From contig NC_086097.1 of NCBI RefSeq assembly GCF_963921235.1, positions 2,914,001 through 2,978,000 of the forward strand: 64,000 nt of DNA, read 5' to 3'. Source of the DNA: Mobula hypostoma (taxonomy: Eukaryota). How positions within the stretch are numbered: position 1 is the first letter of the stretch; each line of letters starts with the position of its first letter. Made by a program: the position numbers and the translations under genes. The notes beneath the pieces were generated by a model. The model did not search any database. It was not told where the DNA came from and was given only the letters and a program-made list of their open reading frames with translations. Positions 3,000-54,992 of this stretch are shown here, piece after piece.

Positions 3000-4975
3000 A
3001 GTTAGGTGCCAGCAGGGCTTCATTTCCAGCTGAGCTCAATGCCTTCTGTGCTCACTTCGACCATCAAAACACGAAGGAACCATTATGGCCTCCTACAGCC
3101 TCCAATAATCCTGTGATTTGTGTCTCTGAGGCCGTCATGCAAGCAGCCTTCGGGAAGGTGAACCCATGTAAAGTATTTAGCTCAGATGGAGTACTGAGCC
3201 AGGTACTAAATACCTGTGCTGATCAACTGGGCGGAGTGTACTGAGCCAGGTACTAAATACCTGTGCTGATCAACTGGGTGGAGTGTACTGAGCCAGGTAC
3301 TAAATACCTGTGCTGATCAACTGGGTGGAGTGTACTGAGCCAAGTACTAAATACCTGTGCTGATCAACTGGGTGGAGTGTACTGAGCCAGGTACTAAATA
3401 CCTGTGCTGATCAACTGGGTGGAGTGTACTGAGCCAGGTACTAAATACCTGTGCTGATCAACTGGGTGGAGTGTACTGAGCCAAGTACTAAATACCTGTG
3501 CTGATCAACTGGGTGGAGTGTTCACTGAGATCTTCGATCTCTCACCTTGGCAGTGTGTTGTATTCACCTTCTTGAAACAGGCTTCAATTATACCGGTACC
3601 TAAGAAGAACGTGGCAAGCTGCCTTAATGACTATCGTCTAGTAGCACCTGCATCCACAGTGATGAAGTTTTTGAGAGGTTGGTGATGAAACATGCCTGAG
3701 AAGTGACTTAGATTCATTCTAATGTGAATACTGGAGCAACAGGTCCACAGCAGATGCCATTTCATTGGATCTTTACTCAACCCTGGAACATCTGGACAGT
3801 AAAGGTCAGGATGCTCTATATCAACTACAGCTCAGCATTTAATACCATCATCCCCTCAAAAGTAATCAATAAGCTCCAAGACCTTGGCGTCAATACCTCC
3901 TTGTGCAATCGGATCTTCAATTTCCTCATATGCAGATCTTAGTTAGGATTGGCAATAACATCTCCACGTTCTTCCCCAGCACAGGTACACCACAAGGCTG
4001 TGTGCTTAGTCTCCTGCTTTACTTGTTTTGTCCTTGTGACTGTGTGGCTAAGCACTGTTGTGGGCCATATCAAAGGGAGATTGAAAATCTGGCTGACTGG
4101 TGCGATAACAACAACTTTTTACTCAGTGTCAGCTACACCAAGGAGCTGAAGCAGGAAACCAGAGCCAGTCGTCATTGGTGGATCAGAGGTGGAGAGGGTC
4201 AGCAACTTCAAGTTGCTCTGTGCTATTATTTCAGGGGGCCTGTCCGGGGCCCAGCAGATAGATGGATTTACAAAGAAGTCATGGCAATGCCTCTACTTCA
4301 TTAGGAGTTTGTGAAAATTTGATGTGATATCTAAAACCTTGACAAACTTCTATAAATGTGTAGTGGAGAGTATATTGACTGTCTGCATCACAGACTGGTA
4401 TGGAAACCCCATTGCAATTAAATGGAAAATCATACAAAAAGTTGTGCATGTGGCTTAGTCCATCATGGATAAAGTCCTCTCCACTGCTGAGCACATCCAC
4501 ATGAAACGCTATCACAGGAAGTCAGCGTCCATCATTAGGAACACCCACTTCTTAGGGCATGCTCCCTTCTCACTGCTGTCATCAGGAAGGAGATACAGGA
4601 GCCTCAGGACTCACACCACCAGGTTCAGGAACAGTTATTACCCCTCAACCATCAGGCTCTTTAACCAAAGGGGATAATCTTACTCAACTTTACTTGCCCC
4701 ATCATTGAAATGTTCCCACAACTAATGGACTCACTTTCAAGGACTGTTCATCTGATGTTCCCAATATTAATTGCTTATTTATTTACTATAATTCTTTTGT
4801 GTTGTCTTTTGCACATCGGTTGTTTGTCTATCTGTTGGGGGCAGTCTTTCATTGATTCTGGTGTTATTATTCTATGGATTTATTGAGCGTGTCCACAAGA
4901 AAATGTATCTCTGGTTGTATATGGTAACATATGTACAGTACATTGATAAAAACCTACTTTGAATTTTGAACCTTA
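3000..4975 (+). mobile_element. Rex1/Babar non-LTR retrotransposon, 5'-truncated and decayed
   Basis: Frameshifted RT motifs ([27 protein letters not shown]) and Rex1-type C-terminus (SGRRYRSLRTHTTRFRNSYYPSTIRL). Confidence 0.8.
3191..3519. repeat. 47-bp minisatellite, 7 units, inside Rex1 RT region
   Basis: Unit gtactgagccaggtactaaatacctgtgctgatcaactgggtggagt at 3191, 3238, 3285, 3332, 3379, 3426, 3473. Confidence 0.95.
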
Positions 4976-14263: not shown

Positions 14264-16451
14264 GTGAGTTAATAAAGCAAATATCAACATAATAATGTAG
14301 TACAATGGTTAAAAATATCCAGGGGAGGAGATACCGGAGGCGGTGTGGGCGAGAGCTGGAGTCCATGCTGGGTTGGGGCTGCCTTCCAGAATTTGCTTGC
14401 TGGAACACGAGTTGGTTTGCGTTCATCAGCAGCTGTACTAGCACGTGATGATGACTGCTGTGTGGTGGTCCTTGCAGAAACGTGTCTCCAGGACAACATT
14501 GCATGCACCATCAATCTTCAGGCTACGATACTCAGGAAGCTGGACTATATATTTAATTGTGACTGTTTTTTGCTGTCGTGACTATATATGTGCTGACAGT
14601 GACTGTTGATGCAGTTTTGCACCTTGGCCCCTGGAAAATGTTTTGTTTGGCTGTATTAATATGTACGGGTGAATGACAATTAAACTTGAACTTGAAATGT
14701 GTTGGAGCTGCATGACATCACAGTACTTTGTAACAAAGCAATTCTGGCATTCATCATTTTATAAAGTGGAGATGACCCAAGATTAATCGAGATAACAAAT
14801 ACAAATCAGCAAAAGAGATATATCAGCACACACAAAAGGCAGGAGGGACTCAGCAGGCCAGGCAGCATCTGTGGAAACGAATAAACAGTTGATGTTTTGG
14901 GCCGAGCACCTTTATCAGAACACCTTTATTACTTCAGTTTGTGAAAAGAGATATAGCTGTCATTTGGATAAGTTTTAGACCATAAGATTTAGGAGCAGAA
15001 ATAGGCCATTTGGCCCATCGAGTCTGCTCCACCATTCAATCATGGGCTGATCCACTTCATCCAGTCATCCCCACTCCCCTGCTTTCACCCCATACCCTAT
15101 GATACCCTGGCTAATCAAGAACCTATTTACCTCTGCCTTAAATATACCCAATGACTTGGCCTCCACAGCCGCTCGTGGCAACAAATGCTACCCTCTGACT
15201 AAAGTAATTTCTCCGCATCTCTGTTCTAACAGGACGTCCTTCAATCCCGAAGTTGTGCCCTCTTGTCCTAGAAACTCCTACCATGGGAAATAACTCTGCC
15301 ATATCTAATCTGTTCAGGCCTTTTAACATTTGGAATATTTCTATGAGATCCCCCTCATTCTCCTGAACTCCAGGGAATACAGCCCAAGAGCTGCCAGACG
15401 TTCCTCATATGGTAACCCTTTCATTCCTGGAATCATTCTTGTGAGCCTTCTCTGAACCGTTTCCAATGTCAGTATGTCCTTTCTAAAATAAGGAGCCCAA
15501 AACTACACACAATAGGCCAAGTGTAGTCTCATGAGTGCCTTATAGAGCCTCAACATCACATCCCTGCTCTTATATTCTATACCTCTAGAGATGAATGCCG
15601 ACATTACATTCGCCTTCTTCACAACCGACTCAATCTGCGGGTTAACCTTTAGGATATCTTGCACAAGGACACGCAAGTCCCCTTGCATCTCTGCATTTTG
15701 AATTCTCTCCCCATCTAAATAATAGTCTGCTCGTTTACTTCTTCCACCAAAGTGCATGACCATACACTTTCCAACATCGTACTTCATTTGCCACTTCTTT
15801 GCCCATTCTCCAAAACTGTCTAAGTCTCTCTGCAGGCTCTCTGTTTCCTCAACACTACCCGCTCCTCCACATATCTTTGTATCATCGGCAAATTTAGCCG
15901 CAAATCCCTTAATACCGCTGTCCAAATCATTGACATACATTGTAAAAAGCAGTGGTCCCAACACCGACCCCTGTGGAACTCCACTGGTAACCGGCAGCCA
16001 GCCAGAATAGGATCCCTTTATTCCCACTCTCTGTTTTCTGCCAATCAGCCAATGCCACACCCATGCTAGTAACTTCCCTGTAATTCCATGGGCTCTTAAC
16101 TTGTTAAGCAGCCTCATGTGTGACACCTTGTCAAAGGCCTTTTGAAAATCCAAGTACAGCACATCTACTGCGTCTCCTTTGTCTACCCTGCTTGTAATTT
16201 CCTCAAAGAATTGCAGTAGGTTAGTCAGGCAGGATCTTCCTCTCAGGAAACCATGTTGGCTTTGGCCGATGTTGTCATGTGTCTCCAGGTACACCGTAAT
16301 CTCATCCCTAACAATCGATTCCAACAACTTCGCAACCACTGATGTCAGGCTAACAGGTCTATAGTTTCCTTTTTGCTGCCTCCCACCCTTCTTAAATAGT
16401 GGAGTAACATTTGCAATTTTCCAGTCATCCGGTACAATGCCAGAATCTATC

Positions 16452-16620
16452 TGTACTGTATAGCTACTGTATAATACTGCATGTGCTATTAGGCATGTAT
16501 TGATCTGTACGTGTATGTTCAGAGTTTGGTTTCAGTCAGTAAAGAACCCTGTTAACTTAGCTCCTGTCTCCAGCATTTTTATTTATAGGTTTGTTGTGTA
16601 ACCCGGCCACATACACAATA
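16452..16620 (+). repeat. 5' LTR
   Basis: About 90% identical by eye (~17 mismatches) to 19666-19887 apart from a ~53-bp indel. Confidence 0.9.
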
Positions 16621-16986
16621 AATTGACAACAAGGTTAATGAACCTACATCATATTGGAACGCCGTGTTTTAATTGATAACGACACCTGGAAGGAGAGCGC
16701 AAGGTATGAGCCAAGGCAGAGCGAGGCCGTGAGTCCGAAAGGAAACAGAAGCACAGCTGCAGGTCGGGAACATTGGGAGACCAAGAGAACAGTCGGAGCA
16801 GCAGCATATCCAGCCGAGACCACAGCCGGCGCTGACCCCAGGGGCTGAGGGTCTGCCTGCCCCAGAAGGGAGATAAAAAGAAGCAACACACACATCTAGA
16901 CGGAGTGCGCTCATGGCGCTAGCAAAAAGGACACATGAGTCAAAAAGAAAACAAGGGGAATATGGGGCTAAACTAACATAACAAAG

Positions 16987-17975
16987 ATGGCGTTGATTGG
17001 AACCATTACAGATTTGATAGTGGCACTGAAGACTGGGCAATTTACATTGAAAGAGTGGAGTTATATTGTGAGGATAATGGTGTTAATGATGAAAAGAAAG
17101 CCAGCGTCTTACTCAGTATTATGGGAGCAAAAACTTATGGGCTGCTTCGGAGTTAACCCCTGAAAAGCCAGCTGACAAAACGTTCAAGCAAATAGTAGAC
17201 ACTCTCCAACAGCGTTTAAACCCCAAACAACTGGCCATTGCTGAAAGATTTAAATTTCACAAACGGAATCAGAGCAAAAACGGAAGCATTTCTGAATATT
17301 GTGCTGAATTGAGCAAATTATCAGAACATTGTCAATTTGGAGCTGGTCTATCGCACGCATTGAGGGACAGGTTAGTGTGTGGCATGCACTGTGAAGCCAC
17401 ACAGAAGAAGCTCCTGGGTGAAAAAGACCTTACATTAGAGAAGACGCTGAACATTGCAATATCAATGGAAACAGCAGCATGGGGTGCTTCAGAGATACAA
17501 CAAAAATCTCTGGAATATGCTACAAATAAAATGTCACTGAGCAGAAACAAAGGAAGGAAATGTTACTGTTGTGGGAATGTGTCACATGACCCTGAGGACT
17601 GTTGGTTTAAAGACAAAGAATGCAGAAACTGTGGCAAACAGGGCCACACTGGCAGAGTATGCAAAGCTAGTAAACAGCAGAAAAAGGACAAAATACAGAG
17701 AAACAAGAAACCCCAGAAAGGAAAACACAACAATGAAAGAAGGCTAAAACGAACTAAACTACTGCTAAAGCCTTACACAGGACAGAAAGTGCATCCCAAA
17801 GGTAAAATTAAAGTGACAGTGACCCACGGAGGTAAAACACAGCAACTGACCCTCTATGTACTGAAAAAGGGAGGACCACCATTACTGGGACGTGAATGGA
17901 TCAGGAAAATCCAGTTGGATTGGCACACCATCAAGACACTAGATGTGTTAACAAAGGAGGGCAGCTTGGCGGAGA
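16987..17975 (+). pseudogene. Gypsy gag plus partial aspartic protease (frameshifted 5' part)
   Basis: ATG 16987 MALIGTI.., [37 protein letters not shown] knuckles [14 protein letters not shown] and [14 protein letters not shown], protease C-half PLLGREW lacking the DTG site. Confidence 0.88.
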
Positions 17976-17977
17976 AG

Positions 17978-18647
17978 ATGTCCGCAGCTCTCCTCTCACC
18001 CATTGTCGACTATTACAACAACGAGGAGTTAGACAGCGTCGATGATGAGGACGAACGCAGTATCCGTGGCTGCGACTCGGATGAAGATACAGAGGATGCA
18101 AGGGAGACAAATACTGCCAATAAGCAGGATGATGAAGACTACCTGGAAGTAAAAGAGCAGATGTACCAGGAAAAATTGACATCTCCCAAAAGACAGCTAC
18201 AGCAGATACAGGAAGGCACTTTGCAGGAGTATCAGAAAAGGATGAAGAAACTAGGTCAACAATACAAGGAAAGAATACGAAATGCAGAGCTTTTTCTGCA
18301 ACTGGAGCCAGAATAACTTGAAAGGAATTATATTAAAGAGAAAAAAGCAGCAGTGAAGGAATTTGAAGATAAAAAGATTGAGTTAGAAGGGAAAAAAGAG
18401 GATTGAGTATGAGAGGCTAACAATGGAACTCACAGGAGATTCTATGGAGGTAAAGCCAATAATGACTAAGAAACTAAGGAGGAGACCTAATGACCCTGTT
18501 CCAATTACAGACAAAAGACAAAAACCTGCACCTGCGCAGTTAAATTACTTGTTGACAGATGAACAGATAGTGGAAGACCTGTGAACTCTCAATAACCTTA
18601 AATCTCCGAAAAGACCTGCATCTCCATCTTCTCCTGAACAATTTCCT
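17978..18647 (+). pseudogene. SUDS3: Processed SUDS3 (Sin3/HDAC complex subunit SDS3) retrocopy fragment, in frame with gag
   Basis: [58 protein letters not shown], then after TAA 18314-18316 ERNYIKEKKAAVKEFEDKK, and after a deletion/frameshift [57 protein letters not shown]; no introns; C-terminal part missing. Confidence 0.92.
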
Positions 18648-19440
18648 TGGGAAAGATCCATGAAAATTGGTCATCCCTTAAAAGCTCTCGGACAAAATCA
18701 ATTCCATTCAAACAGAACAGTTTTCGCACAAGGTAAATCTTGAACCAATCATTTCCTCCATTGAGAATCATTCACTTAATCCTTTGCACTGAAGTTTCTT
18801 TTGCACGTACATATTTTGAATCCTCAGTCAATGTGTCTTGTTTTGCACAAAGAAGTTGGGAATCAGCATCAAAACAGAGGTGAATTCTGGCAACAAACTG
18901 TGAGGTTTCTATTGTTGTATTTTCACACTTGTGCTGAGTGTGCGTCTGAAGGAATTCCCCGTCTTGAGTCAGGTCCGCACTCTCTTCTTGCACTGTGCAC
19001 AACTGGGAGTTTTCATACATAGAATCCTCCAGACAATTCAGAAACAGTGCATAGAGTTCAGTCTCATTTCCTTGACCAAGATTTGTTTTTTGAACTTTAG
19101 ACAGATAGCACTGCAGGTAATCCTTAATATCAGCAAAACTGTACTTTAACAGCAGCTTAAGAACAATGGAATGAGCAACAGGATTTTGATCAACTGCTTC
19201 TTCAAGTAATGAATGATTACTGGTAAAGTGCTGATCTTTCTGTGAGTCATTGGATTACCCGGACTTTTGAATAACTAGCAGAGACAGCAGATCACCAACC
19301 ACTTCTTTTGGAAACCAAAGCTACGGAAAATGCATCACACCTCTTGCGAAATATAACTAATTTTGCTACAGCTTCACTTATTTCTTCTGTTACTGCTGGT
19401 ACATAATCATCATCTAGAGAAATATGACACAGTGGGCAGA
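18631..19440 (-). pseudogene. RNF213: Processed RNF213 (mysterin) fragment, end of RING through following E3 region, antisense to the element
   Basis: Minus strand reads CPLCHISLDDDYVPAVTEEISEAV..FRKRCDAF..KEVVGDLLSLL..SIVLKLLLKYSFADIKDYLQ..TELYALFLNCLEDS..VARIHLCFD..NDWFKIYLVRKL..WIFPKEIV, matching RNF213 (human VILKLLLKYSFHDVKDYIQ, TELYMLFINCLEDS, NDWHRVYLVRKL, WVFPKDVV); two stops and one deletion. Confidence 0.88.
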
Positions 19441-19665
19441 GTCCCCCCCAGAGACTTGAGTTATAAATGGGTCTTAGACCAAAAGTGGAAAAAAAAGGCT
19501 TGTTATAATTTGATATTATTACGTTACTTTGTTATAATTTGATATTGTTAAGTTACTAAGTAAACAATTTGTAGGCATTTGTATGTTAAGGGTAAACATA
19601 CTTGTTTAGCGTAGTGCCCCAGTAAAAAAAAAGGTTGATACACTATTAAAATAAAAGGGGAGGAG

Positions 19666-19887
19666 TGTACTGTTCAGCTACTATATAATATGGGACTACT
19701 TTATGTTGTAGGGACATGTTGCATGCGCTATTATGCATGTACTGAGCATGCGCTATTAGGTGCGTATTGATCTGTAGGAGTGTGTTCAGAGTTCGGTTTC
19801 AGTCAGTAAAGAGCCCTGTTAACCTAGCTCCCGTCTCCAGCGTTTTTATTTATAGCTTTGTTGTGTAACCCGGCCACATACACAACA
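19666..19887 (+). repeat. 3' LTR (followed by PBS-like motif and a duplicated LTR tip to 19915)
   Basis: Follows the PPT; TGTACTG...CACAACA. Confidence 0.9.
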
Positions 19888-21110
19888 AATTGGTGACAAG
19901 GTCACATACACAACACTATCGATTCGTGAAAGATCACCGTTGACGCCTCCGCAATCTCTTCAGCTACTTCCTTCAGAACCCGAGGGTAAATTCCATCAGG
20001 TCCAGCAGATTTATCCAACCTCAGACCATTAAGCTTCCTGAGCAGCTTCTCAGTCGTAATTTTCACTGCACAAACCTCACTCCCCTGACACTCTTGAATG
20101 TCCGGTATACTGCAGACGTCTTTCACTGTGAAGACTGATGCAAAATACGCATTCAGTTCCACTGCCATCTCTGTACCTTTCGTTACAATATCTCCAGCGT
20201 CATTTAGTATTGGTCCTATATCTACCCTCGACTCTCTTTTACCCTTTATATATCTAAAAAAGCTTTTAGTATCTTCTTTAATATTAGTCGCCAGCTTCCT
20301 CTCATAATTCATCTTTTCCTTCCGAATATCCTTCTTAGTTTCCTTCTGCAAGTTTTTAGAAGCTCCCCAATCCTCTATCTTCCCATTCCCTCAGGGGTGG
20401 AAATTTTTGAAACATTTATGGAAATGTTTCCGACTACCACATAGTTCCTATGGGAGGACCACAATCTTGCCGTAGGGGTCGGAGGTTTGTATGCCTGAAT
20501 GACCCATTGAGCTCTGTTGGCTGGAGTTGGGGCTTTATGCTTTGGTTCTTGGTCGGGTCACCCATGCCGAACAGATCAAAGGTAAAGGCCAGACTAAGAA
20601 TGGTCCTCTTTGTTTGGGAGTTCTGCTCAGGGCAAACAACCGTGATTGGTCAAAAAAGTTGTCATGGAAACAGCAATGAAAAATCCTTATATATCTGTGT
20701 GCGATCAAGGACAGACAGAGATGGAGGACCTTCATTGCTGCCCTAAACACCAGTGAGAAAGCCACATAGTTACTCTTAGGGGAAAAATAATTTATTGGCT
20801 GTAAAGAAAATGAAATTCTGATCAATCAACCCTTTGTCAGTGAGGTACTCAAGTAAATGTACTTTTCAATTGAGATGAATGGCTTCAACACTGTGAACTC
20901 ACCCATGAGAAAGGGTCTTGGCCTGAAACATTGACTGCTTATTCATTTCCATAGATGCTGCCTGATCTTCTAAGTTCCCGCAGTGTTTTGTGTGTGCTGC
21001 TCTGGATTTTCAATATCTGCAGAATCTCTTGTCATTGTCAACCCACCCTCTCTGTTTTTGGATATTGAAAGTTAGTTGCTTTTACTTGAACCTCTGTTGT
21101 TCTTTCTCAG

Positions 21111-27696: not shown

Positions 27697-29712
27697 CGTA
27701 AGACCATAAGATATAGTAGCAGAAGTAAGCCATTTAGCCCATCGAGTCTGCTATGCCATTCAATCATGGACTGGTCCAATTCTTCTAGTCATCCCCACTC
27801 CCCTGCTCTCACCCCATATCCTTTGATGCCCTGGCTAATCAAGAACCTATCTATCTCTGCCTTAAATACACCCAATGACCTGGCCTCCACAGCTGCTCAT
27901 GGCAACAAATTCCACAGATTTACCACCCCCTGACTAAAGTAATTTCTCTACATCGCAAATCTAAAAGGACGTTCTTCAATCCTGAAGTCATGCCCTATTG
28001 TCCTAGAGACATCTAACATGGGAAATAACTTTGCTATATCTCATCTGTTCAGGCCTTTTAACATTTGGAATGTTTCTATGAGATTCCCACTCATTCTCCT
28101 GAACTCCAGGGAATATAGCCCAAGAGCTGCCAGATGTTCCTCATAGGGTAACCCTTTCATTCCTGGAATCATTCTTGTGAATCTTCTCTGAACCCTCTCC
28201 AATGTCAGTATATCCTTTCTAAAATAAGGAGCCCAAAGCTGCACACAACACTCCAAGTGTGGTCTCACGAGTGCCTTATAGAGCCTCAACATCACATCCC
28301 TGCTGTTATATTCTATACCTCTAGAAATTAATGCCAACATTGCATTTGCCTTCAACTGACTCAACCTGGAGGTTAACCTTTAAGGTATCTTGCACAAGGA
28401 CTCCCAAGTCCCTTTCCATCTTTGCATTTTGAATTCTCTCCCCATCTAAATAATAGTCTGCCCGTTTATTTCTTCCACCTAAGTGCATGACCATACACTT
28501 TCCAACATTGTATTTGCCACTTTTTTGTCCATTCCCCTAAACTATCTAAGTCTCTCTGCAGGCTCTCTGTTTCCTCAACACTACCCGCTCCTCCACCTAT
28601 CTTTGTATCATCGGCAAATTTAGCCACAAATCCATTAATACCAGACTCCAAATCATTGACATACATTGTAAAAAGCAGCGGTCCAGTATCGACCCTTGTG
28701 GAACTCCACTGGTAACTGGCAGCCAGCCAGAATAGGATCCCTTTATTCCCACTTTCTGTTTTTTTGGCAATCAACCAATGCTCCACCCACGCTAGTAACT
28801 TCCCTGGAATTCCATGGGCTCTTATCTTGCTAAGCAGCTTAAGAATTGCAGTAGGTTTGTCAGGCAGGATTTTCCTTCCAGGAAACCATGCTGGCTTTGG
28901 CCTATCTTGTCATGTGCCTCCAGGTACTCTGTAATCTCTGCCCTAACAATCGATTCCAACAACTTCCCAATCACTGATGTCGGGCTAACAGGTCTATAGT
29001 TTCCTTTCTGCTGCCTTCCACACTTCTTAAATAGCGGGGTAACATTTGCAATTTTCCAGTCATCTGGTACAATGCCAGAATCTATCGATTCTTGAAAGAT
29101 CATCCGCAATCTCTCCAGCTGCTTCCTTCAGAACCCGAGGGTGAATCCCATCACGTCCAGGAGATTCATCCACCCTCAGACCATTAAGCTTCCTGAGCAC
29201 TTTTTCGGTCGTAATTTTCACTGCACGAACTTCACTTCCCCGACACTCCTGAATGTCTGGTATACTGCAGACGTCTTCCACTGTGAAGACTGATGTAATA
29301 TATTTATTCAGTTCCTCTGCCATCTGTGCATCTCTCATTACAATATCTCCAGTGTCATTTTATATTGGTCCTATATCTACCCTCAACTCTCTTTTACCCT
29401 TTATGTACTTAAAAGAGCTTTTAATATCTTCTTTGATATTAGCCGCCAGCTTCTTCTCGTAATTCATCTTTTCCTTCTGAATGGACTCCTTCGTTTTAAA
29501 AGCTCCCCGATCCTCTATCTTCCCATTAGCTCTGGCTTCTTTGTATGCCCTCTCTTTTGCTTTTACTTTGGCTCTGACTTCACTTGTCAGCCACGGTAGT
29601 GACCTTCTCCCCTTTGCAAATTTCTTCTTATTTGGAATGTATCTGTCTTGCACTTCCCTCATTTTCACAGAAACTCCAGCCATTGCTGCTCTGCTGTCCT
29701 TTCTCCAAACCC
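27697..29712 (-). mobile_element. CR1 LINE, 5'-truncated, same family as 14975-20385
   Basis: KFADDTK, GNYRPVSPTSVIGKLLE, internal deletions; shows the empty Gypsy target gaatctatcgattc near 29078-29091. Confidence 0.88.
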
Positions 29713-30409
29713 TTAAAAGCAAATTAGTTTTGTTGCTGCCAGTCTATTACTTCTGATGTGGCAACAGTAAAAGAATAGATTTAAAGCCTTAGTGTTCTTG
29801 AATGTCCAAGTTTAATTTTAATCAATCCAGAACACATTAATCCAAGAAATGAATTGTCTCCAAATTACATGCATGTTGTATGCATCAAATGAGACCTGAG
29901 GTACAAAACTGTAAGATGAAGAAACTACTGTGGGCTTCAAGTTACTGAGGAGTAGTGGGTTTGATGTTGGTGAATAATGTCTGTCACTGATGAATTAATG
30001 GTATTCTTATAACTAAACATGGGGTTAAAAATGTTTTGCATGTGGCAGCCTGCAGTGGATCCTTTATGAATCCTTGGTTTAGCAGGTATATTTCTAACCT
30101 GTACTTTGGGAGGCACGGTAATGTAGCAGTTAGCGTAATGCTTTATAATGTCACTGACCAGACTCAGTTCACACCACTGTCTGTAAGGAGTTTGTGCATT
30201 CCCCCAGTGAACATGTGGGTTCCCTCCAAGTGCTCCAGATTCCAAAAGCACACAGGTCAGTACGTTCATTCGTCACATGGGCTGTAAGTGCCTGTTACTG
30301 TGCTGTATCCCTATGCGACCTCAATATGGATGGCCTGTGCTGGTCCAGAAAGATCTTAGGCCTCAACTTATATTATCAGAGGCTTCAACATGAATTTTGA
30401 ACAATAGTT

Positions 30410-34994: not shown

Positions 34995-37900
34995 AGACTT
35001 TCTGGAAGGGGACCCATGGAGTGAGCTGTATTTTGGTGTCGCTCTGTACCCTTTACTCTCTTACATGCAACCACTCTTATTTACTTCACCTATACCTACA
35101 CTAAAGGATTTGTATTACATTTATATCATTGAATTATGACTCTTACTTACTGAAAATGAATACCAGAGCACGAGAAGTTAAAGAAGGGAAAGGTCCCGGC
35201 GGGAACGGAAAAAAAAAATGGTGATCCTGGAACATCGAAGGAAGCTCCGATAACTGCGGAACTAATGAAGAAACTTCTAGAAGATACAGTTAATTGAAGA
35301 CTCACCGCAATTGAAGAAGTGTTGAAGTCGATGCAAGAAGAGTCAAGATCATTCAGACGTGAAATCGATCAACAACAAGTCAGATCTCAGAACTAGATGA
35401 AGATGGCCACAAAAGGGATAGAAAAATTGAAGCTCTTGAAAAAAGTTTAATTTCAGTAACTCAGCAACTGGAACGTTATCAAGCTAAGACTATTGATCTT
35501 GAAAATCGCTCCCGATGACAGAGTTTGCGAATAATCGGTTTACAATAAGATGTTGAGACGGGAGATCCTACCAAATATTTTTCTAAATTGCTAATGGATG
35601 TGTTTGGCTCTGATATATTGGAGGAGCCCCGACTATTAGATCGTGCACATCGTTCTTTTCGTTTTAATCCGAAGAATGTGGCCAGGCCGAGACCAATTAT
35701 CATTCGGTTTCATTATGTCCATGATAAGGAACGAGTTATTCGAGCTGCTCGGAAGAAAGGTATAATCCAATTTTGAGAATTCAAGTTCAGAATTGTTGAA
35801 GACTACAGCCAAGACATACTGAAAAAATGAATGGCTTTTAAACCACAGATGGCAGAACTGTATTGTCGGGGTTATAAAATAGCGTTACTGTTTCCAGCCC
35901 GTCTGAGAGTGGTTATGCGGGACAACTCGCGTAGCCTGTTTAAAAATCTGATGGAAGCCCAAAGTTTTCTCGATGATCTGCCTCCCTCTGCGGAGGATTA
36001 ATTAATGTATCGTTTTGTTCTCTCTCGTCTTTGAATTGTATAGTTTGAGGGTTTTTTTTCCCCTTGATCTTGCAGTGTAGGTTCGCTTTATACTGTTAAA
36101 TGATATTATGCTTTTCTGTTAGTGATCTTGTATATCTTACTCTTAATACTTTTTGAAAGTTATTTAGTTACAATTTTAATGCTTGTTCTCTTTCGGAAAT
36201 GTTACTGGAATATTATATTTTAAAATGGTGGATTGTTTTCTTCTTCCCCCCAGAATCCTTTTTGTCTGTAACGTCACTTGCGATCATTTATATATGAAAA
36301 ATTAATATAGTAATATGATCAACGTTTGATGTTCTTTGAAATATGAGTAAGAAGGAACTATTCGATGCTTATAATTGTTGTAAGCTTTTTCTTACCATTA
36401 TAACTTTTTTAACCTTTTTTTGAATATGGGTGGTATTTCTTTTGATAAACATATTTCTTTTGGGTTGCCTTCTGGAAAGATGGGGTTAGAATTAGCTTTA
36501 GATTTAGCATTGGCCACTTTCTGGCTTTTTTCTGGGTTTTTGTGGGAGGAAGGTGGTATTCTTGTTCTTATTTTTAACTTATTTTTGCTTTTTAAACGGG
36601 CTGACCTGAAACTACCAAAATGTCTGAAATGTCGTAACTTCCGGTTCCTCTTTGAACCTTTTTTCCTCTGGGGTCATGAGTCTGTACTCTGGTTAACCCT
36701 TTACATACTTTATCCTCGAGCTCATTACGATGGATAAGATTGTTAATTTGGTTTCTTGGAATACAAATGGCTTAAACCACACGATTAAACGGAAGAAAAT
36801 TTTTAAAGTCTTCCATAGGATGAATGCTCACATTATTTTTGTACAAGAAACTCATGTCCGGAAAGAGGATAATCAGCATTTTTTTAGATTCTGGAAGGAA
36901 CAACAGTACCACTCAAACTCACAGGCTAAAGTAAAAGGCGTTTCTATTTTTATTAATCCGTCAATTTCATTTCTGCATTATGAGATGATTTCAGATCCCA
37001 ATGACAGATTTTTGTTAATTACTGGCAAAAAAGTTGTTATACTTAATGTTTATGCCCCAAATGTTGACTGTCCCGATTTTTTTTAAGAATCTCGTTACAT
37101 CTCTTCCTTATTTAAATGACTATATGTTGATTATGGGTGGAGATTTCAATTGTTGTTTAAATCCTTTGATGGATAGATCCAAGTCCAATCAAGTACTTCC
37201 GAATAAATCGGCTACCCTTATTAACTCTTTTATGACCGACTCTGGAATCTCAGAACTTTGGAGATTCTTACATCCGAATGAGAAACAGTTCTAATTTTTT
37301 TCACATGTACATCAGCACTACTCAAGAATTGACTTTTTTTATTGACTCTCGATTAATTCCTCGTTATTGGTTGCAAATATGATTCTATTGCTGTTTCTGA
37401 CCATGCACCATTGAAATTATTTATTAACTTAAGGGATACATTTACTAATTCTAGACAATAGCGATTTAATACTTTGCTTCAAGGCTCAGATTTTGTTAGG
37501 TTTATTGAGGAACAGATTAATTTTTTCTTTGCAATGAACTCTACAGAGGATATTTCCAGCGGGACACTATGGGATACTTTTAAAGCATATATTTGTGGAC
37601 AAATTATTTCATATGCTGTTGGATTAAAAAAGCGAACTAGTAATGAAATACTTAAACTGGTTGACACGATTAAAGAAGTTGATAAGAAATATTCTATAGC
37701 TCCTAATCATGAACTTTATAAACAGAGGGTTGAACTTCAGATGGAACATAATCTCTTACTATCATCTTCGATTGAACAATTAATCAAAACTAAGAGTCAA
37801 TTCTATATACATGGTGATAAAACTGGAAAACTATTGGCTACTCAATTGAAATCGGCCTCGGTTAAACGACAGATTCTTAAGATTCGTAAACAAGATGGCA

Positions 37901-40900
37901 CTTTGACAGTTGACCATGATGAGATTAATAAATCCTTTCAAGAATTTTATACCTCCTTACATCAATCAGAATTTCCTGATGACTCCACTATAATGCATGA
38001 ATTTTTAAAGAAATTGAATATTCCAAAATTGTCACCTAATTGAACGTTCAAAATTAGATGTACCTATTACAGTAGAGGAAATAAAGAATGCTATTTTTTC
38101 AATGAACTCAGGTAAAGCACCTGGCCCAGACGGATATACAGTAGAATTTTTAAAATTTTTCTCTACTACACTGACTCCTTGGCTATATAGTGTTTTTAGG
38201 GATGCAGGTAAATTACCACAATCTTTTTATCGAGCTTCTATTTCCCTAATTCTTAAAAAAGATAAGAACCCTACTGAATGTGCATCTTATAGGCCTATAT
38301 CTTTGCTGAATGTAGATTCTAAGAATTTTTCTAAAATATTGGCAATGAGATTGGTGAATGTATTACCTCAAATTATTTCTGCTGATCAGACTGGATTTAT
38401 TAAAAATCGTTACTTTTTTTAATATTAGGAGATTAATGAATATTGTTCAGATTATAAAGACACGCAGTCCTCTTTAATTGTCACTTAGTAATGCATGCAT
38501 TAAGAAATGATACAATATTTCCTCCGGTGTGATATCACAAAACACAGGACAGACCAAGATGGAAAAAACTGACAAAACCACATAATTATAACATATAGTT
38601 ACAACAGTGCAACAATACCATAACTTGATGAAGAAGTCCATGAGCATAGTAAAAGTTCAAAGTCTCTCAAATGTCCCACATCTCACGCAGACGGGAGAAG
38701 GAAGGAAAACCCTCCCTGCCATGCCGACCACAATCTGTCTCTGAGTCATCCGAAAACTTCGAGCCTCCGAATCAGCTCTCCGACACCGAGTACTGAGCGC
38801 CACCTCTGTCTGAACGATTCGACCTCAATCTCGGTCACCAACTGCAGGCAAAGCCGGGGATTTTGAGGCCTACCCTCTGGAAGATTCCCGACCGTGCAGT
38901 AACGACAGCAGCGAACGGGCATTTCAGAAATTTCTCCAGATGTTCCTCTGTGCTTTCATGTCCCTCTCCATCAAATCAGAATTGGCCACGGCCCCTATTT
39001 AACAGATACGATATCATTTTTCACCGGAGGGCTGCGCACGCGCGGCACGCTGCTCTCTCTCCTCCCGCCTTCACCCAGAATTCCAAAATGTGTTATTTCA
39101 TTGGATGCTGAGAAAGCTTTTGACAGAGTTGAATGGACATATTTACTTAACACCCTTGAGAAATTTAATTTTAGTTCGATATTTATATCTTGGATTAAAC
39201 TGATATATCTCACCCCTTTGGCTTCGGTATTTACTAACAATCAAAGATCCGCTCTCTTCCATCTACTCCGTGGTACTAGGCAGGGTTGTCCTCTTAGTCC
39301 ACTACTATTCGATGTTGCCTTGGAACCGCTAGCTATTGCCATTCGTTACTCCCCTAATATATTTGGTATTACCCGTGGAAATGAGACTCATAAATTATCA
39401 CTATATGCAGATGATCTACTATTATATATTTCTAACCCAGGAAAATCTATTCCAGCAGTATTAACTTTGCTTGCTCAGTATAGTAGTTTTTCTGGTCATA
39501 AACTGAACCTAGGTAAGAGTGAACTCTTTCAATTAAATATGCAGGGTCCCACTTATAGAAATTCTCCATTTAGAGTGACTAATTATTTTACTTATTTGGG
39601 TGTTAAAATTACTAAGAGACATAAGGATCTATTCAATTTCAACCTTTTACTGTTAATTAATCGGGTTAAACAACTGATTACTAAGTGGTCCCCATGTCTC
39701 TATCATTGATTGGCCGAATCAATGCTATTAAAATGATTATTTTACCTAAATTTTTATATTTATTTCAAACGATACCAATTTTTATTCCTAAATCCTTTTT
39801 TGATACGATTGATTCTAAAATTTCCTCTTGTATATGGCAAAATAAAAATCCCAGATTAAGTAAAAAATTACTTACAGAAATCTAAGAAAGAGGGTGGTTT
39901 GGCATTGCCTAACCTACGATTTTACTATTGGGCAATTAATATTCGATATTTAATATTTTGGACGCAAGATTGGAATATAACTCCAAGCCCACATTGGGTA
40001 AACCTTGAAGGCCACTCTGTACAGGGGTTTTCTTTAGCTTCCATTTTAGGAACTTCACTTCCTTTTGTACTATCTAAATTGAATAAACAAATGTTTAACC
40101 CTATAGTTAAACATACATTGCGAATATGCTTTCAATTTCGTAAATTTTTTGGCCTGAATGAATTTATGTTATCAAGTCCTATTACATCTAATTTCTTTTT
40201 TCAACCCTCTGTAATGGAGCAAGCCTTTCTGATATGGAAAACGAAAGGTATAATATGTTTTCATGACTTATTTCTGGATAACTGTTTTATGTCTTTTGAG
40301 CAGTTATCTAAGAAATTTGACTTGCCTGGATCCCATTTTTTTTTTAGATACTTACAAGTAAGAAATTTTTTAAATACTATGTTGCCTACCTTTCCGACTT
40401 CAAATCCTACTGATATTATTGATAAAATTTTAAGTTTAAATTCTTCTCAGAAGCGATTAATAGCAATTATTTATGATATAATTATGAAATTACAGCCAGG
40501 TATATCTGATAAAATTAAAAATGAATGGGAAAGGGAACTTCAACTTTGTCTACCTATAGAGAAATGGGATAAAGTTTTTCAATTAGTTAGTACTACTTCT
40601 ATATGTGCTAAACATACATTAATACAATTTAAAGTAGTACATAGAGCCTATATGTCCAAAGATAAATTAGCTTGTTTTTATTCCCATATAAACCCCGCTT
40701 GTGACAGATGTCACTCTGAGGTGGCTTCTTTAACTCATATGTTTTGGTCCTGTCCTCTTTTGGAAAAATATTGGAAAGATATTTTTGATATTATTTCAAT
40801 AGTTCTATGTTTTGATTTAAAACCCCATCCTATTATGGCAATTTTTGGATTGCCAATGGTTGAACATAGATCTTTGTCTTCTTCAGCCTGGCGGATGATA

Positions 40901-41453
40901 GCATTTGTTACTTTAATGGCTAGAAGATCTATTTTGTTGAACTGGAAAGAAATCAATCCTCCTACTACATTCCAATGATTTTCTCAAACTATATTAAGTT
41001 TAAATTTAGAAAAAATTAGAAATGATATTTTTGATCCTTCGGTTAAATTTGAAGAAACTTGGAAACATTTTATGCAACATTTCCATATGATGTAATCTGA
41101 CCTTTCCGAATCTTTTTTTTAACTTAAATTATATGAATAGAGGAGCGGAGTTGATGACATTACTGAATGTGTCTGATTCAAGATATTGGTCTAGCCCTGT
41201 TTTGTTCTGTTCTTTTTTGGGTTTTTTTTTCTTTTTCTTTTGGGAATTTTTCTTTGTGTGTATATATATATATATATATTTATTTTCTTTTTTTATGACT
41301 AATTTCATTATGAGTTTAGAAGTCTATTATACCTACGTTACTTAAAATCCTTTTTGTATATGCTGATTAAGATTATTCCAATCTCCTTGTACCAACTTTG
41401 TTATTGAGTTTATAATTTTGAAAATTAATAAAATGGTTTATAAAGAAGGAAAA
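34995..41453 (+). mobile_element. Full-length decayed L1-clade LINE inserted in a CR1 3' fragment
   Basis: ORF1 remnants (LDRAHR, RPIIIRFHY), APE endonuclease (SWNTNGL, VQETH, GGDFN), RT (GTRQGCPLSPLLF, LYADD), C-terminal CDRC..HMFWSC, aataaa tail; many stops and frameshifts. Confidence 0.9.
38449..39070 (-). mobile_element. CpG-rich non-autonomous retroposon inserted in L1 ORF2
   Basis: Interrupts L1 between LMNIV and PKCVISLDAEKAF; its 3' end matches 25550-25710 (aataaa..ggactgcgtgtcctcataatct). Confidence 0.6.
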
Positions 41454-42605: not shown

Positions 42606-45600
42606 ACTTGAATCCTAGGGGGACCAATATCCTGGCAGGGAGATTAGCGGAGGCTACTGAGGTGACTTTAAACTAGAATGGTTGGGGGGTGGGAATCAAA
42701 TTAAAGAGGCTAGGCGTGAGGAGGTTAGTTCACAACAGAGGGATGGGAACCAGTGCAGAGAGACAGAGGGGTGTAAAGTGAGCGTAGAAGCAAAAAGTAC
42801 TAAGGAGAAAAGTAAAAGTGGCAGGCCGACAAATCCAGGGCAAGCATTAAAAAGGGCCACTTTTCAACATAATTGTATAAGGGCTAAGAAGGTTGTAAAA
42901 GAGCGCCTGAAGGCTTTGTGTGTCAGTGCAAGGAGCATTCGTAATGAGGTGGATGAATTGAAAGTGCAGATTGTTATTAATGATTATGATGTAGTTGGGA
43001 TCACAGAGACATGGCTCCAGGGTGACCAGGGATGGGAGCTCAACGTTCAGGGATATTCAATATTCAGGAGGGATAGACATGAAGGAAGGGGAGGTGGGGT
43101 GGCGTTGCTGGTTAAAGAAGAGATTAACGCAATAGAAAGGAAGGACATAAGCCGGGAAGATGTGGAATCGATATGGGTAGAGCTGCGTAACACTAAGGGG
43201 CAGAAGACGCTGGTGGGAGTTGTGTACAGGCCACTTAACAGTAGTAGTGAGGTCGGAGATGGTATTAAACAGGAAATTAGAAATGTGTGCAATAAAGGAA
43301 CATCAGTTATAATGGGTGACTTCAATCTACATGTAGATTGGGTGAACCAAATTAGTAAAGGTGCTGAGGAAGAGGATTTCTTGGAATGTATGCGGGATGG
43401 TTTTTTGAACCAACATGTCGAGGAACCAACTAGAGAGCAGGCTATTCTGGACTGGGTTTTGAGCAATGAGGAAGGGTTAATTAGCGATCTTGTCGTGAGA
43501 GGCCCCTTGGGTAAGAGTGACCATAATGTGGTGGAATTCTTCATTAAGATGGAGAGTGACATAGTTAATTCAGAAACAAAGGTTCTGAACTTAAAGAGGG
43601 GTAACTTTGAAGGTATGAGACGTGAATTAGCTAAGATAGACTGGCAAATGACACTTAAAGGATTGACGGTGGATATGCAATGGCAAGCATTTAAAGGTTG
43701 CATGGATGAACTACAACAATTGTTCATCCCAGTTTGGCAAAAGAATAAATCAAGGAAGGTAGTGCACCCGTGGCTGACAAGAGAAATTAGGGATAGTATC
43801 AATCCAAAGAAGAAGCATACAAATTAGCCAGAGAAAGTGGCTCACCTGAGGACTGGGAGAAATTCAGAGTTCAGCAGAGGAGGACAAAGGGCTTAATTAG
43901 GAAGGGGAAAAAAGATTATAAGAGAAAACTGGCAGGGAACATAAAAACGGACTTAAAAGCTTTTATAGATATGTAAAAAGGAAAAGACTGGTAAAGACAA
44001 ATGTAGGTCCCCTGCAGACAGAAACAGGTGAATTGATTATGGGGAGCAAAGACGTGGCAGACCAATTGAATAATTACTTTGGTTCTGTCTTCACTAAGGA
44101 GGACATAAATAATCTTCCAGAAATAGTAAGGGACAGAGGGTCCAGTGAGATGGAGGAACTGAGCGAAATACATGTTAGTAGGGAAGTGGTGTTAGGTAAA
44201 TTGAAGGGATTGAAGGCAGATAAATCCCCAGGGCCAGATGGTCTGCATCCTCGAGTGCTTAAGGAAGTAGCCCAAGAAACAGTGGATGCATTAGTAATAA
44301 TTTTTCAAAACTCGTTAGATTCTGGACTAATTCCTGAGGATTGGAGGGTGGCTAATGTAACCCCAGTTTTTAAAAAAGGAGGGAGAGAGAAACCAGGGAA
44401 TTATAGACCGGTTAGCCTAACGTTGGTGGTGGGGAAACTGCTGGAGTCAGTTATCAAGGATGTGATAACAGCACATTTGGAAAGCAGTGAAATGATCGGA
44501 CAAAGTCAGCATGGATTTGTGAAAGGAAAATCATGTCTGACGAATCTCATAGAATTTTTTGAGGATGTAACTAGTAGAGTGGATAGGGGAGAACCAGTGG
44601 ATGTGGTATATTTGGATTTTCAAAAGGCTTTTGACAAGGTCCCACGCAGGAGATTAGTGTGCAAACTTAAAGCACACGGTATTGTGGGTAAGGTATTGGT
44701 GTGGGTGGAGAATTGGTTAGCAGACAGGAAGCAAAGAGTGGGCATAAACGGGACCTTTTCAGAATGGCAGACGGTGACTAGTGGGGTACCGCAAGGCTCA
44801 GTGCTGGGACCCCAGTTGTTTACAATATATATTAATGACTTGGCTGAGGGAATTAAATGCAGCATCTCCAAGTTTGCGGATGACACGAAGCTGGGTGGCA
44901 GTTTTAGCAGTGAGGAGGATGCTAAGAGGATGCAGGGTGACTTGGATAGGTTGGGTGAGTGGGCAAATTCATGGCAGATGCAATTTAATGTGGATAAATG
45001 TGAAGTTATCCACTTTGGTGGCAAAAATAGGAAAACAGATTATTATCTGAATGGTGGCCGATTAGGAAAAGGGGAGGTGCAACGAGACCTGGGTGTCATT
45101 ATACACCAGTCATTGAAAGTGGGTATGCAGGTACAGCAGGCGGTGAAAAAGGCGAATGGTATGCTGGCATTTATAGCGAGAGGATTCGAGTACAGGAGCA
45201 GGGAGGTACTACTGCAGTTGTACAAGGCCTTGGTGAGACCACACCTGGAGTATTGTGTGCAGTTTTGGTCCCCTAATCTGAGGAAAGACACCTTTGCCAT
45301 AGAGGGAGTACAAAGAAGGTTCACCAGATTGATTCCTGGGATGGCAGGACTTTCATATGAAGAAAGACTGGATGAACTGGGCTTGTACTCGTTGGAATTT
45401 AGAAGATTGAGGGGGGACCTGATTGAAACGTATAAGATCCTAAAGGGATTGGACAGGCTAGATGCAGGAAGATTGTTCCCGATGTTGGGGAAGTCCAGAA
45501 CGAGGGGTCACAGTTTGAGGATAGAGGGGAAGCCTTTTAGGACCGAGATTAGGAAAAACTTCTTCACACAGAGAGTGGTGAATCTGTGGAATTCTCTGCC

Positions 45601-45811
45601 ACAGGAAACAGTTGAGGCCAGTTCATTGGCTATACTTAAGAGGGAGTTAGATATGGCCCTTGTGGCTACGGGGGTCAGGGGGTATGGAGGGAAGGCTGGG
45701 GCGGGGTTCTGAGTTGGATGATCAGCCATGATCATAATAAATGGCGGTGCAGGCTCGAAGTGCCGAATGGCCTACTCCTGCACCTATTTTCTATGTTTCT
45801 ACGTTTCTGTA
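42606..45811 (+). mobile_element. Young CR1 LINE: ORF1 tail plus nearly intact ORF2 (APE endonuclease and RT)
   Basis: HLNPRGTNILAG (SGNH-like ORF1 end); ORF 42682-43827 (GITETW, MGDFN, SDHN); ORF 44033-45712 (RT); tttctatg tail; candidate TSD CACTAT at 42600-42605 and 45812-45817. Confidence 0.92.
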
Positions 45812-51900: not shown

Positions 51901-52735
51901 TCTGTATGGTTAATTGTAAAAAAAAGCTCAATCTGTTCATTCATAAAATTAACAAAGTCCGAGTCCTGAAGCAACAGCGAATTAAAACGCCATTGTCTAT
52001 TGTTTGGTATATTGGCCATAATTTTAATAGAAAGCTTAAGTGGAGCATGATCCGAAATGGTTATAGAATCATAATCACATTTAATCACTGAAGGAATGAG
52101 ACGAGAATCAATGAAAAAATAATCAATTCTTGAATAGGAATGATGAACATGTGAAAAGAAGGAAAAATCTTTTTCCTGAGGATGCAGAAAACGCCAAATG
52201 TCCGTCGACCCAGAATCAGAAAGGAAAAAATTAATCAAATTTGCAGATTTATTAGGTAAAGTCCGTAAAGGAGCCGAACGGTCCAAAGCTGGAGATAAAC
52301 AGGTATTAAGATCTCCGCCCCAAATCAATGAAAACTCGTTCAAATTCGGAAACTGATCAAACAATGATTTATAATATTCCGGACAATCCATATTAGGAGC
52401 ATAAACATTAACCAAAACTACTTTTTTATTAAATAGTAAACCACTAACCAATAAAAATCTACCATTCGGATCAGAGATAATACCTGTTGTATAAAAGTAA
52501 TTGAGGAATCTATAAAAATAGAGACGCCTCGAATCTTAGCATTGGAGTTCGAATGAAATTGTTGCCCCTTCCAGAATTTGAAAAAACGTAGTCTGTCCCC
52601 CCTCCGTACATGGGTCTCTTGTAAAAATAAAATTTGTGCTTTAAGTCTCCGGAACACTTTAAAAACTTTTTTTCTTTTAATAGGATGATTAAGACCATTA
52701 GTATTCCAGGAGACAAAATTAATAATAGACTCCAT
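48961..52735 (-). pseudogene. L1 ORF2p (APE endonuclease, RT, Cys-rich domain) broken by two apparent 1-bp deletions
   Basis: SWNTNGL, LQETH, GGDLN, SDHAP, GTRQGCPLSPLLF, LYADD, CDRC..HMFWSC across three long ORFs; frameshifts near 52480 and 50420. Confidence 0.9.
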
Positions 52736-53457
52736 ATATCCTAAAGTCAACCCACAACAAGGAGGATTGACAATAGGCGCGACCCACAAACCCGGAGAGG
52801 AAACAGAACATACAAAAGATACCGGGGAAAAGGACGCAACCAGTACTTCAATAATGTATATAGCCCAAAGAAAAACAAACTAAAACGTGAAGCCCCTCCC
52901 ACCACCCCCCACCCCAAGACCCCAAGGCAAAATCTAAAGCAGACCCGCCAGAAAGAAGCAAGCGCTAAAACTACCCCCATGACTTCCGGTATACGCTCCC
53001 TAAAAAAAAGGTATAAATATGAAAAGGATCAGCTAATTGTAAAACAGTAAAAAAATAAGTAAAAAAAAGTTAGCTCAATTAGAATACACACAGAACAGAA
53101 CAAAAGCCGGAAAATATATATTAAAAAAAAACCACAATAAACCTCAAACTCATGAATAGACACAGCAACAAAAAAAATAGGATTATTAACATAAAGTGAT
53201 TATAAAAAGCAAAACAGAATAAAATTTAAAAAAAAACTACAAAATTTAAGGCCGCACAGGAAATACGTAAGATGACAAAAGGGAAGTAACCACCCAGAAT
53301 CCCCTGGGAAAAGAAAGAAATGACGCAGTTAAAAAGAAAGTTTAGCAGCCATATTAAGAAATCAAAAGTAAACTTTTCTGCCCAAATAGGGCACAGAAAA
53401 GTTAAAACCAACCAATTCACAGCCTCCGATCAACGGAGATAATTAAAAAAAAGGCAA

Positions 53458-54339: not shown

Positions 54340-54992
54340 AGCAGATCTAAGTATCATCCAATTGTCAGAGAATTCAGTTTAATTCAAAGTATTGTAAAAA
54401 TTGATGCCTTAATGGTTAATTAAAGTATAGCTGACCATAGAGAAAAAAAACTCAGAGGTAATGGAGCGAGTCAAGAACGCGACTTCACTCCATGAGCGCT
54501 ACCGGAAGTCCCTACTGTAAACCTGATAACCATAGTAATTTTCAATTATTCAACGTCAACCATCAAGAAGGAGGTACACACTCAACTTTTAGGAACAGCT
54601 TCTTTCCTTCCACCACCAGATTTCTGGACGGGCAATGAACCCATTAATACTACCTCACTATTACATATTTCCCCTCTCTTTTTGCACTACTTATTTAATT
54701 TAATTTTTTAAAACATATATTCCATATTGTAATTTATAGTGTATTGCGATGTACTGCTGCCTCAAAGCAGCAAATTTCAGGACATATGCCAGTGATATTA
54801 AACCTGATTCGGATTCTAGTTCAGGGAGTGAGCACTGAATTAATGATCAGTTTGCATGTAGATCTCAAGTCTGGCGCAAGATATTAAGGTTTTCTTGTGG
54901 ACGGGGAGGGGTGAAGGACTGTACTGGTAACTAATCTGATTGATCAAACATTGATGTTACTGATTCTGGGAATCAGAAGTGAAAACAACATC

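Follow-up and report, generated by a model that had tools for sequence, protein, structure and literature searches.

Long terminal repeat (LTR) retrotransposons can acquire host genes by LTR-mediated retroposition, in which the reverse transcriptase (RT) quits the element RNA during minus-strand synthesis, copies a co-packaged mRNA and returns to the element (Tan et al. 2016, PMC5131818). In the cases presented in that paper an internal retrocopy replaces part of an open reading frame (ORF) between both LTRs, the copies derive from partial mRNAs and have no poly(A), at least two parental genes may contribute to one chimera, and microsimilarity at the switch points is a defining feature. Its examples include CG4799_CG11924_r, a two-gene chimera carried by a Pao element, and 'Super', a retrocopy of the mouse, and it documents both two-gene chimeras and secondary retroposition, since a chimera that has both LTRs can be a non-autonomous element that is retroposed again. 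Here we describe a locus that resembles these cases in internal replacement, partial cargo, more than one parental gene and perhaps renewed mobility: a 3464-bp Ty3/Gypsy-type LTR element at positions 16452-19915 of a 64-kb stretch of the genome of the ray Mobula hypostoma (hereafter the window), in which pieces of the host genes SUDS3, which encodes SDS3, and RNF213 occupy most of the place of pol. We consider it likely that this is a dead, non-autonomous copy from a family of such elements in a myliobatiform ray, that its pol was replaced by the two host pieces during reverse transcription, and that the resulting chimera was itself reintegrated.

Acutely transducing retroviruses with gag-onc genes are replication-defective and helper-dependent and have host coding sequence in frame with gag in place of pol; they are also infectious, are associated with env and are selected for cell transformation. 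The ray element shares with them a host gene fused in frame to gag and a replaced pol, but shows no hint of infection, env or a growth effect: no env-like ORF was found between its LTRs, and an envelope model is absent from the listed Pfam domains of its relatives. The analogy to these viruses, which had been proposed from the sequence alone, is looser than the match to the class described by Tan et al.

Two further systems are close. In crocodilians, ERV4 lineages captured the mRNAs of KIT-ligand (9 copies) and nectin3 (6 copies) (Chong et al. 2014, PMC4299795); as in the ray, a spliced host mRNA was taken up by an LTR-class element of a vertebrate, a family resulted, and the captured copies form a clade of their own. 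However, the crocodilian elements are endogenous retroviruses described as having cargo under purifying selection, in one case without loss of viral domains, whereas the ray element is Gypsy-type, has lost pol and carries cargo that evolves as if unconstrained. Maize Bs1, as summarized in PMC5131818, is likewise an LTR element with pieces of several unlinked host genes, and all of its copies share their switch points, but it is a plant element present at 1-5 copies per genome from which a hybrid protein is made, and the ray copy is degenerate. Compared with the cases in PMC5131818 themselves, which occupy one to a few insertion sites, the ray element apparently has at least tens of copies, resides in a cartilaginous fish and carries one of its cargoes antisense. 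The kind of structure is already known. New are the group of animals in which it occurs, the antisense orientation of its second cargo and the extent to which it has apparently been amplified. Literature searches on SUDS3 and elasmobranch retrotransposons, on Mobula transposable elements and on gene capture by non-autonomous LTR elements of vertebrates yielded no report of the element.

Structure of the insertion and its cargoes

The limits of the element are exact (Table 1). Both LTRs begin with TGTACTG and end with ..ACA, and a 5-bp target-site duplication (TSD), CTATC, lies directly outside each of them, so that direct TG..CA repeats are bounded by a duplication within the 4-6-bp range. The insertion interrupts a CR1-type long interspersed nuclear element (LINE). 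Another CR1 copy in the window (28044-29743, minus strand), which belongs to the same subfamily, supplies the unfilled site and is uninterrupted at the equivalent point, where ..ccagaatCTATCgattc.. occurs once and CTATC is single. Contigs from all four public runs that we used join 16446 to 19916, with 5 letters that fit both sides. Over a 157-nt ungapped core the LTR pair is 89% identical, with 17 differences, 6 of them in CpG context, and a Kimura two-parameter distance of 0.12; 53 nt of the 3' LTR are absent from the 5' LTR. In addition to both LTRs, the element has kept a primer-binding-site (PBS)-like motif, a polypurine tract and gag as cis parts. The predicted fold of the leader (16640-16990) is unremarkable (z -1.0), and a 29-bp tandem duplication lies at 19500-19557 in the 3' untranslated tail. 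A BLASTN search with the element returned only itself and LTR-against-LTR matches within the window, hence no other copy there.

Table 1. Features of the inserted element, of the LINE that it interrupts and of the empty target site, in window positions
Feature	Position	Strand	Remarks
Host CR1-type LINE ORF2 (reverse transcriptase), interrupted by the insertion	15503-20390	-	ORFs; PF00078, E 1.7e-31
Left TSD copy, CTATC	16447-16451	none	inside host CR1
5' LTR	16452-16651	+	200 bp, TG..CA
PBS-like motif	16655-16666	+	TGG-led; first base 3 nt past 5' LTR
gag	16988-17716	+	capsid-like domain and two CX2CX4HX4C knuckles; PF03732, E 1.6e-5
Protease, C-terminal half	17741-17947	+	tblastn, P0122 residues 334-402, 67% identity
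SUDS3 (SDS3) retrocopy	17948-~18641	+	30 nt of 5' untranslated region and codons 1 to ~236
RNF213 coding fragment	~18634-19441	-	antisense to element; ~800 bp, ~284 residues
Last seven pol codons and stop, PPQRLEL*	19443-19466	+	C-termini of P0122, P0124, P0126
3' untranslated tail of element	19467-19652	+	contig depth as high as gag
Polypurine tract, AAAAGGGGAGGAG	19653-19665	+	adjoins 3' LTR
3' LTR	19666-19915	+	250 bp, TG..CA
Right TSD copy, CTATC	19916-19920	none	
Empty target site in another CR1 copy	29082-29086	none	single CTATC

The closest database proteins to the gag of the element are Gypsy gag-pol polyproteins ('K02A2.6-like'), which are 58-66% identical to it over ~70% of the query. 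We mapped seven such relatives (P0121-P0127), two of them partial (P0121, P0123) and five near full length (1311-1335 aa); the latter five have RT, RNase H and integrase domains, protease models were found in three of the seven (P0124, P0126, P0127), and their order of protease, RT, RNase H and integrase was assumed rather than taken from domain positions. In tblastn, residues 7-243 of P0122 matched 17013-17716 with 55-59% identity, and identity to P0121 reached 79%. The gag carries CCHC knuckles as expected of a Ty3/Gypsy-type element; a Pfam scan of the window ORF at E<=0.01 returned neither a protease nor a zf-CCHC model. Residues 244-333 of P0122, which correspond to the N-terminal half of the protease and hold the catalytic Asp in the relatives, are absent, and tblastn with the whole 1335-aa P0122 recovered no RT, RNase H or integrase from the element. 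Coding sequence resumes only with PPQRLEL*, comparable to the C-termini ..PPDKLNL and ..PPKRLDL of relatives. The reading frame of gag has two breaks, close to 17011 and to 17153, and this copy is dead and non-autonomous. By its homologies, the space of RT, RNase H and integrase is filled with ~1.5 kb of host sequence from SUDS3 and RNF213.

The SUDS3 cargo, with its ATG at 17978, is 91% identical to Mobula/Pristis SDS3 over 137 aa and matches the solved SDS3 fragment 4zqa (E 3e-12), while the Pfam Sds3 model gave 19.2 bits, below the Pfam cut-off of 25.4. It shares its frame with gag and protease, one frame being open from 17093 to 18316, and its damage consists of two in-frame stops, one frameshift and the loss of eight codons (KENLIAEL). 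Isoforms of the parental gene (P0008, P0003, P0001) have read-through insertions after ..SDE, ..TLNK and ..KRP, and at these points the cargo is continuous. Since the isoforms mark at least three parental intron positions that are missing from the cargo, it is, on this comparison, intronless and derived from a spliced mRNA.

The RNF213 cargo is a piece of internal coding sequence that begins at the last zinc-binding pair of the RING and runs into the C-terminal domain. In a phmmer search of the PDB it gave three colinear ORF matches to human RNF213 chain 8s24_A, at residues 4071-4114 (E 3.7e-4), 4150-4284 (E 6.7e-23; best RNF213 chain 2e-23) and 4311-4354 (E 5.9e-6). It is damaged by two in-frame stops and by one frameshift with a 30-nt gap. 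A 990-nt contig from an RNA run (record 23) follows the piece for more than 500 nt with 90.6% identity, contains the 30 nt missing from the window copy, and stops covering it at ~19444. The coding sequence of human RNF213 is divided among 69 exons, of which exon 43 contains residue 4019 and exon 44 residue 4042 (PMC5063318); this was the only exon boundary that a literature search aimed at residues ~4030-4315 yielded. A spliced mRNA is the presumed source of the ray piece. One RNA-run contig skips 116 nt, from 18732 to 18849, but we do not interpret the skipped stretch as an RNF213 exon, as direct repeats of 9-10 nt flank it and it does not have the look of an exon junction. Where the two cargoes meet, 10-14 nt (18634-18647) can be read as SUDS3 or as RNF213, which is compatible with microsimilarity at a switch point and is no test of it. 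An ORF across this junction (18588-18743) had two matches among 1.84 billion representative proteins, one of which begins like a mucin-type protein; neither aligns to the window in tblastn.

Most of the anatomy had been anticipated by a sequence-only reading of the window. Its complete integration with two LTRs, a polypurine tract and a TSD inside a CR1 with a visible empty site was confirmed, as was the replacement of RT, RNase H and integrase by two unrelated host genes, the P0122 mapping leaving only gag, the C-terminal half of the protease and seven pol codons. The identities of SUDS3 and RNF213 also held, and to these we add the minus-strand orientation of RNF213, which it did not mention. 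Its description of the cargo as intronless is upheld for SUDS3, and for RNF213 it is presumed.

The edges of the cargoes bear on how they arrived. Ordinary LINE processed pseudogenes are recognized by a 3' poly(A), a 7-20-bp TSD and 5' truncation, and neither cargo has any of the three. No poly(A) and no flanking duplication, which the sequence-only reading had named as grounds for abandoning its proposal, was found at the edges of either, and the SUDS3 piece has kept its 5' end and lost its 3' end. Each piece takes the place of part of the coding region that the LTRs enclose, and has neither a poly(A) nor a TSD of its own. These absences, the retained SUDS3 5' end and the internal position of the RNF213 fragment show that the cargo is not LINE-made. 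That two independent processed pseudogenes became nested in an ordinary LTR element after its integration is very improbable: LINEs are plentiful around the locus, but no residual pol separates the pieces, the same joints recur in diverged contigs (see below), and a 3'-truncated SUDS3 beside an internal RNF213 piece runs counter to the tendency of LINEs, noted in PMC5131818, to truncate their products at the 5' end.

Related copies in sequencing runs and annotated genes

Evidence beyond the window came from the Logan contigs of four runs, two of DNA (organisms A and B) and two probably of RNA, compared with the region 16300-20070 at 80% likeness or more. No RNA holder of the locus was listed, and no run contains more than 0.33 of the 31-mers of the locus, so that the contigs represent relatives or paralogs and not the window locus itself; shares of 0.20-0.25 of the locus words were obtained for organisms C-H, which stand outside the contig analysis. 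Mean summed word depth, which is not a copy number, was ~17.7k for gag, ~11.0k for SUDS3, ~1.3k for RNF213 and ~15.6k for the 3' tail in run X1 and ~46.8k, ~34.1k, ~6.2k and ~29.3k, respectively, in run X5, on a scale where the CR1 flanks reach 400-740k in X1 and single listed contigs 6-70. The ratio of SUDS3 to gag depth was 0.62 in X1 and 0.73 in X5, and RNF213 depth was 12-18% of SUDS3 depth. We read these proportions as a family in which SUDS3 is present in most members and RNF213 is a second cargo in roughly one member out of six to eight, the window copy being a member of the RNF213-carrying sub-lineage.

A measure more robust than depth is the number of distinct contigs that carry the family letter at sites where the window copy is private, for which a single-copy gene should give one or two per site. 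At the listed variant sites, X1 gave 19-65 distinct contigs for gag, 8-54 for SUDS3 and 6-26 for RNF213, and X5 gave 5-34 for RNF213; taking gag, SUDS3 and the 3' tail together, the DNA runs of the two other organisms gave 8-65. Two of the three joints between element and cargo are bridged as well. Record 6 of X1 (283 nt, 27 differences, no gaps, 90% identical) spans 18584-18866 and with it the SUDS3/RNF213 joint, and record 11 of X15 (262 nt, 20 differences, 3 gaps) spans 17913-18171 and with it the protease/SUDS3 joint. These data suggest that at least two other organisms harbor numerous copies of related elements that share the joints. A further joint in X15, from 17733 to 18083, occurs in an RNA-run contig of depth 2189. 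Part of this contig matches the A/G-rich stretch of gag and protease, whereas its continuation is unlike the window; in all probability an unrelated transcript has here been aligned through its purine-rich sequence.

The bridging contigs also bear on whether the chimera could be an artefact of assembly from unrelated reads, which we regard as scarcely credible. Two of the three joints are crossed by independently assembled contigs of other runs, the TSD and the empty site are exact, and the frames are continuous across the protease/SUDS3 joint. Since the TSD and LTRs enclose both cargoes, and since a diverged contig, 90% identical, has the same SUDS3/RNF213 joint, the proposal of the sequence-only reading that the double chimera itself was integrated is supported by these comparisons.

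Annotated genes provide a second line of evidence. The NCBI annotations of Mobula birostris and M. hypostoma list three 'SDS3-like' proteins each (P0004-P0007, P0009, P0071), located on six scaffolds, all different from those of true SDS3. We compared them and the window cargo with true SDS3 of both Mobula species, Pristis and Hemitrygon and with that of gar. The KENLIAEL deletion is common to all seven copies and absent from the true SDS3s, and further shared derived changes are P>T in PITDKR (six of the six copies covering it), S>G (5/5) and R>Q near the C-terminus (4/4); because of these characters the seven copies are best derived from one source. In the tree they group as a single clade (support 93/84), in which the stem is very short and the tips, of 0.07-0.10, radiate like a star, as after a burst that followed one capture. 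The SDS3-like copies are 80-87% identical to each other in pairs, and each is 88-92% identical to the parent. Among the six sampled there is no near-identical pair across the two species, which suggests a family far larger than six. Together with the contig counts and depths, the six paralogs with the same derived characters support the amplified family that the sequence-only reading had envisaged.

The SUDS3 C-terminal part that RNF213 replaces in the window copy is retained in five of the six SDS3-like proteins, and the SUDS3-only form is therefore the older. P0071 of M. birostris extends upstream of the SUDS3 5' untranslated region (UTR) into sequence weakly like the protease tail, with 18 matches in 32 residues (E 2e-5 against a 1.2-kb subject), which is no more than a hint. 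N-terminal extensions are present on both P0071 and P0005, and part of that of P0071 is similar to the CR1 ORF2 of other places in the window (42.9% identity over 56 residues and 40.4% over 52). No sign of constraint was seen on the SDS3 copies: by our own estimate, the 8-12% by which their proteins differ from the parent is roughly what neutral evolution over their age would give. With the window copy broken and the paralogs diverging at about this rate, the cargo shows no sign of function, and the 'SDS3-like' gene models look like element cargo decaying neutrally and not like functional paralogs.

It might be argued that these look-alikes arose by segmental or tandem duplication or as separate LINE processed pseudogenes, which would leave the window locus as the only integrated chimera. 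A second copy with its own TSD was not seen, depth is no copy number, and a long-frame L1-like LINE in the window (48964-54378) could make processed pseudogenes. Nevertheless, SUDS3 depth follows that of gag and the tail at the ratios given above, two element/cargo joints are bridged by contigs (records 6 and 11), one deletion and up to three substitutions common to seven SDS3 copies indicate a single source, the six paralogs are on six scaffolds, and the upstream extension of P0071 is weakly like the protease tail. We therefore give this explanation only a slim chance.

Proposed origin and the route of the antisense cargo

The anatomy fits LTR-mediated retroposition, and a sequence of steps can be suggested. 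Copying of a spliced SUDS3 mRNA would have begun near codon 236 and proceeded to the 5' end of the mRNA, after which synthesis would have returned to the element RNA inside the protease, creating a reading frame of gag, partial protease and SDS3. The joint between protease and SUDS3 lies at the start of the 30-nt 5' UTR, as would be expected of a forced switch at the 5' end of the mRNA. In a sub-lineage, a second excursion may then have exchanged the 3' part of SUDS3 for ~800 nt of RNF213 in reverse orientation. The template for this would have been antisense to the mRNA, and the simplest candidate is RNF213 first-strand cDNA within the particle. Finally, the double chimera would have been transcribed, reverse-transcribed and integrated into the CR1, duplicating CTATC. 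Because RT, RNase H, integrase and the catalytic half of the protease are missing, movement would have been possible only with enzymes supplied in trans, presumably by an autonomous Gypsy relative.

For the second cargo there is another route. SUDS3 may have been acquired by template switching and the antisense RNF213 piece added at the DNA level in one copy, which later became the source of a sub-lineage, either as filler cDNA or a fragment at the repair of a double-strand break or through recombination with a processed pseudogene of RNF213 in the vicinity. Switching between RNA templates does not readily account for an antisense piece, the depth of RNF213 at 12-18% of that of SUDS3 indicates a later sub-lineage, and the annotated SDS3-like proteins keep the SUDS3 C-terminus that the window copy has replaced. 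On the other hand, the piece fits precisely into the space from SUDS3 codon ~236 to the last pol codons, with nothing extra, and the 10-14-nt stretch readable as either parent is the signature expected of a copy-choice switch. RT can also copy DNA templates, and no observation separates the two routes. On balance we view the DNA-level route as unlikely, if credible, and continue to favor the uptake of both cargoes during reverse transcription.

Several points weigh against that preferred origin. Switching onto a co-packaged mRNA in its plain form does not give an antisense RNF213. The RNF213/pol-tail joint is bridged by none of the listed contigs (32 of 39,399 pieces), a second full copy with its own flanks and TSD was not seen, so that the retrotransposition of other copies is presumed from the family evidence, and summed depth cannot be converted to copy number. 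Among the database proteins compared, no autonomous partner is closer than 66-79% protein identity. The window contains no tRNA gene to which the PBS-like motif could be matched. A search with the 407-aa gag-protease-SDS3 query returned no gag-SDS3 fusion protein among the best 120 of 748 matches; the candidates, of 223-713 aa, matched gag only or SDS3 only.

Implications and neighboring repeats

If this origin is correct, the locus shows LTR-mediated retroposition in cartilaginous fish and a gene-carrying chimera that has apparently multiplied far beyond the published cases compared here, which number from one to nine copies. It would also account for several 'SDS3-like' genes in Mobula annotations, and the antisense second cargo may provide a test case for the uptake of DNA or antisense templates by RT.

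A further idea concerns the choice of cargo. SDS3 is a subunit of the Sin3-HDAC corepressor, and RNF213 is an interferon-linked E3 ligase. Both could have acted against the host and so driven amplification of the element. If so, a Gag-SDS3 fusion made by the source element could interfere with histone-deacetylase silencing of the element, and LTR-driven transcripts of the sub-lineage, from tens of copies, each with ~800 nt of antisense, could feed antisense or small RNAs directed against RNF213. We liken this arrangement to the W-linked Masc retrocopies of Plutella, and think it improbable that it explains the spread of the element.

The remainder of the window is rich in repeats. A 54-bp minisatellite at 505-1376 (16 copies, 96% match) produces long spurious ORFs on both strands (251-1434), and a 47-bp tandem repeat occupies 3191-3521 (7 copies, 98% match). 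LINE fragments lie on the plus strand at 37462-40975, with RT and zf-RVT domains, and at 42661-45709, with an endonuclease (PF03372), RT and a 596-aa open frame. The L1-like LINE at 48964-54378 (minus strand) has a 306-aa ORF1-like frame (PF02994) and ORF2 frames of 714 and 486 aa (PF00078, zf-RVT). This LINE may be young, and ordinary processed pseudogenes in the genome could stem from it.

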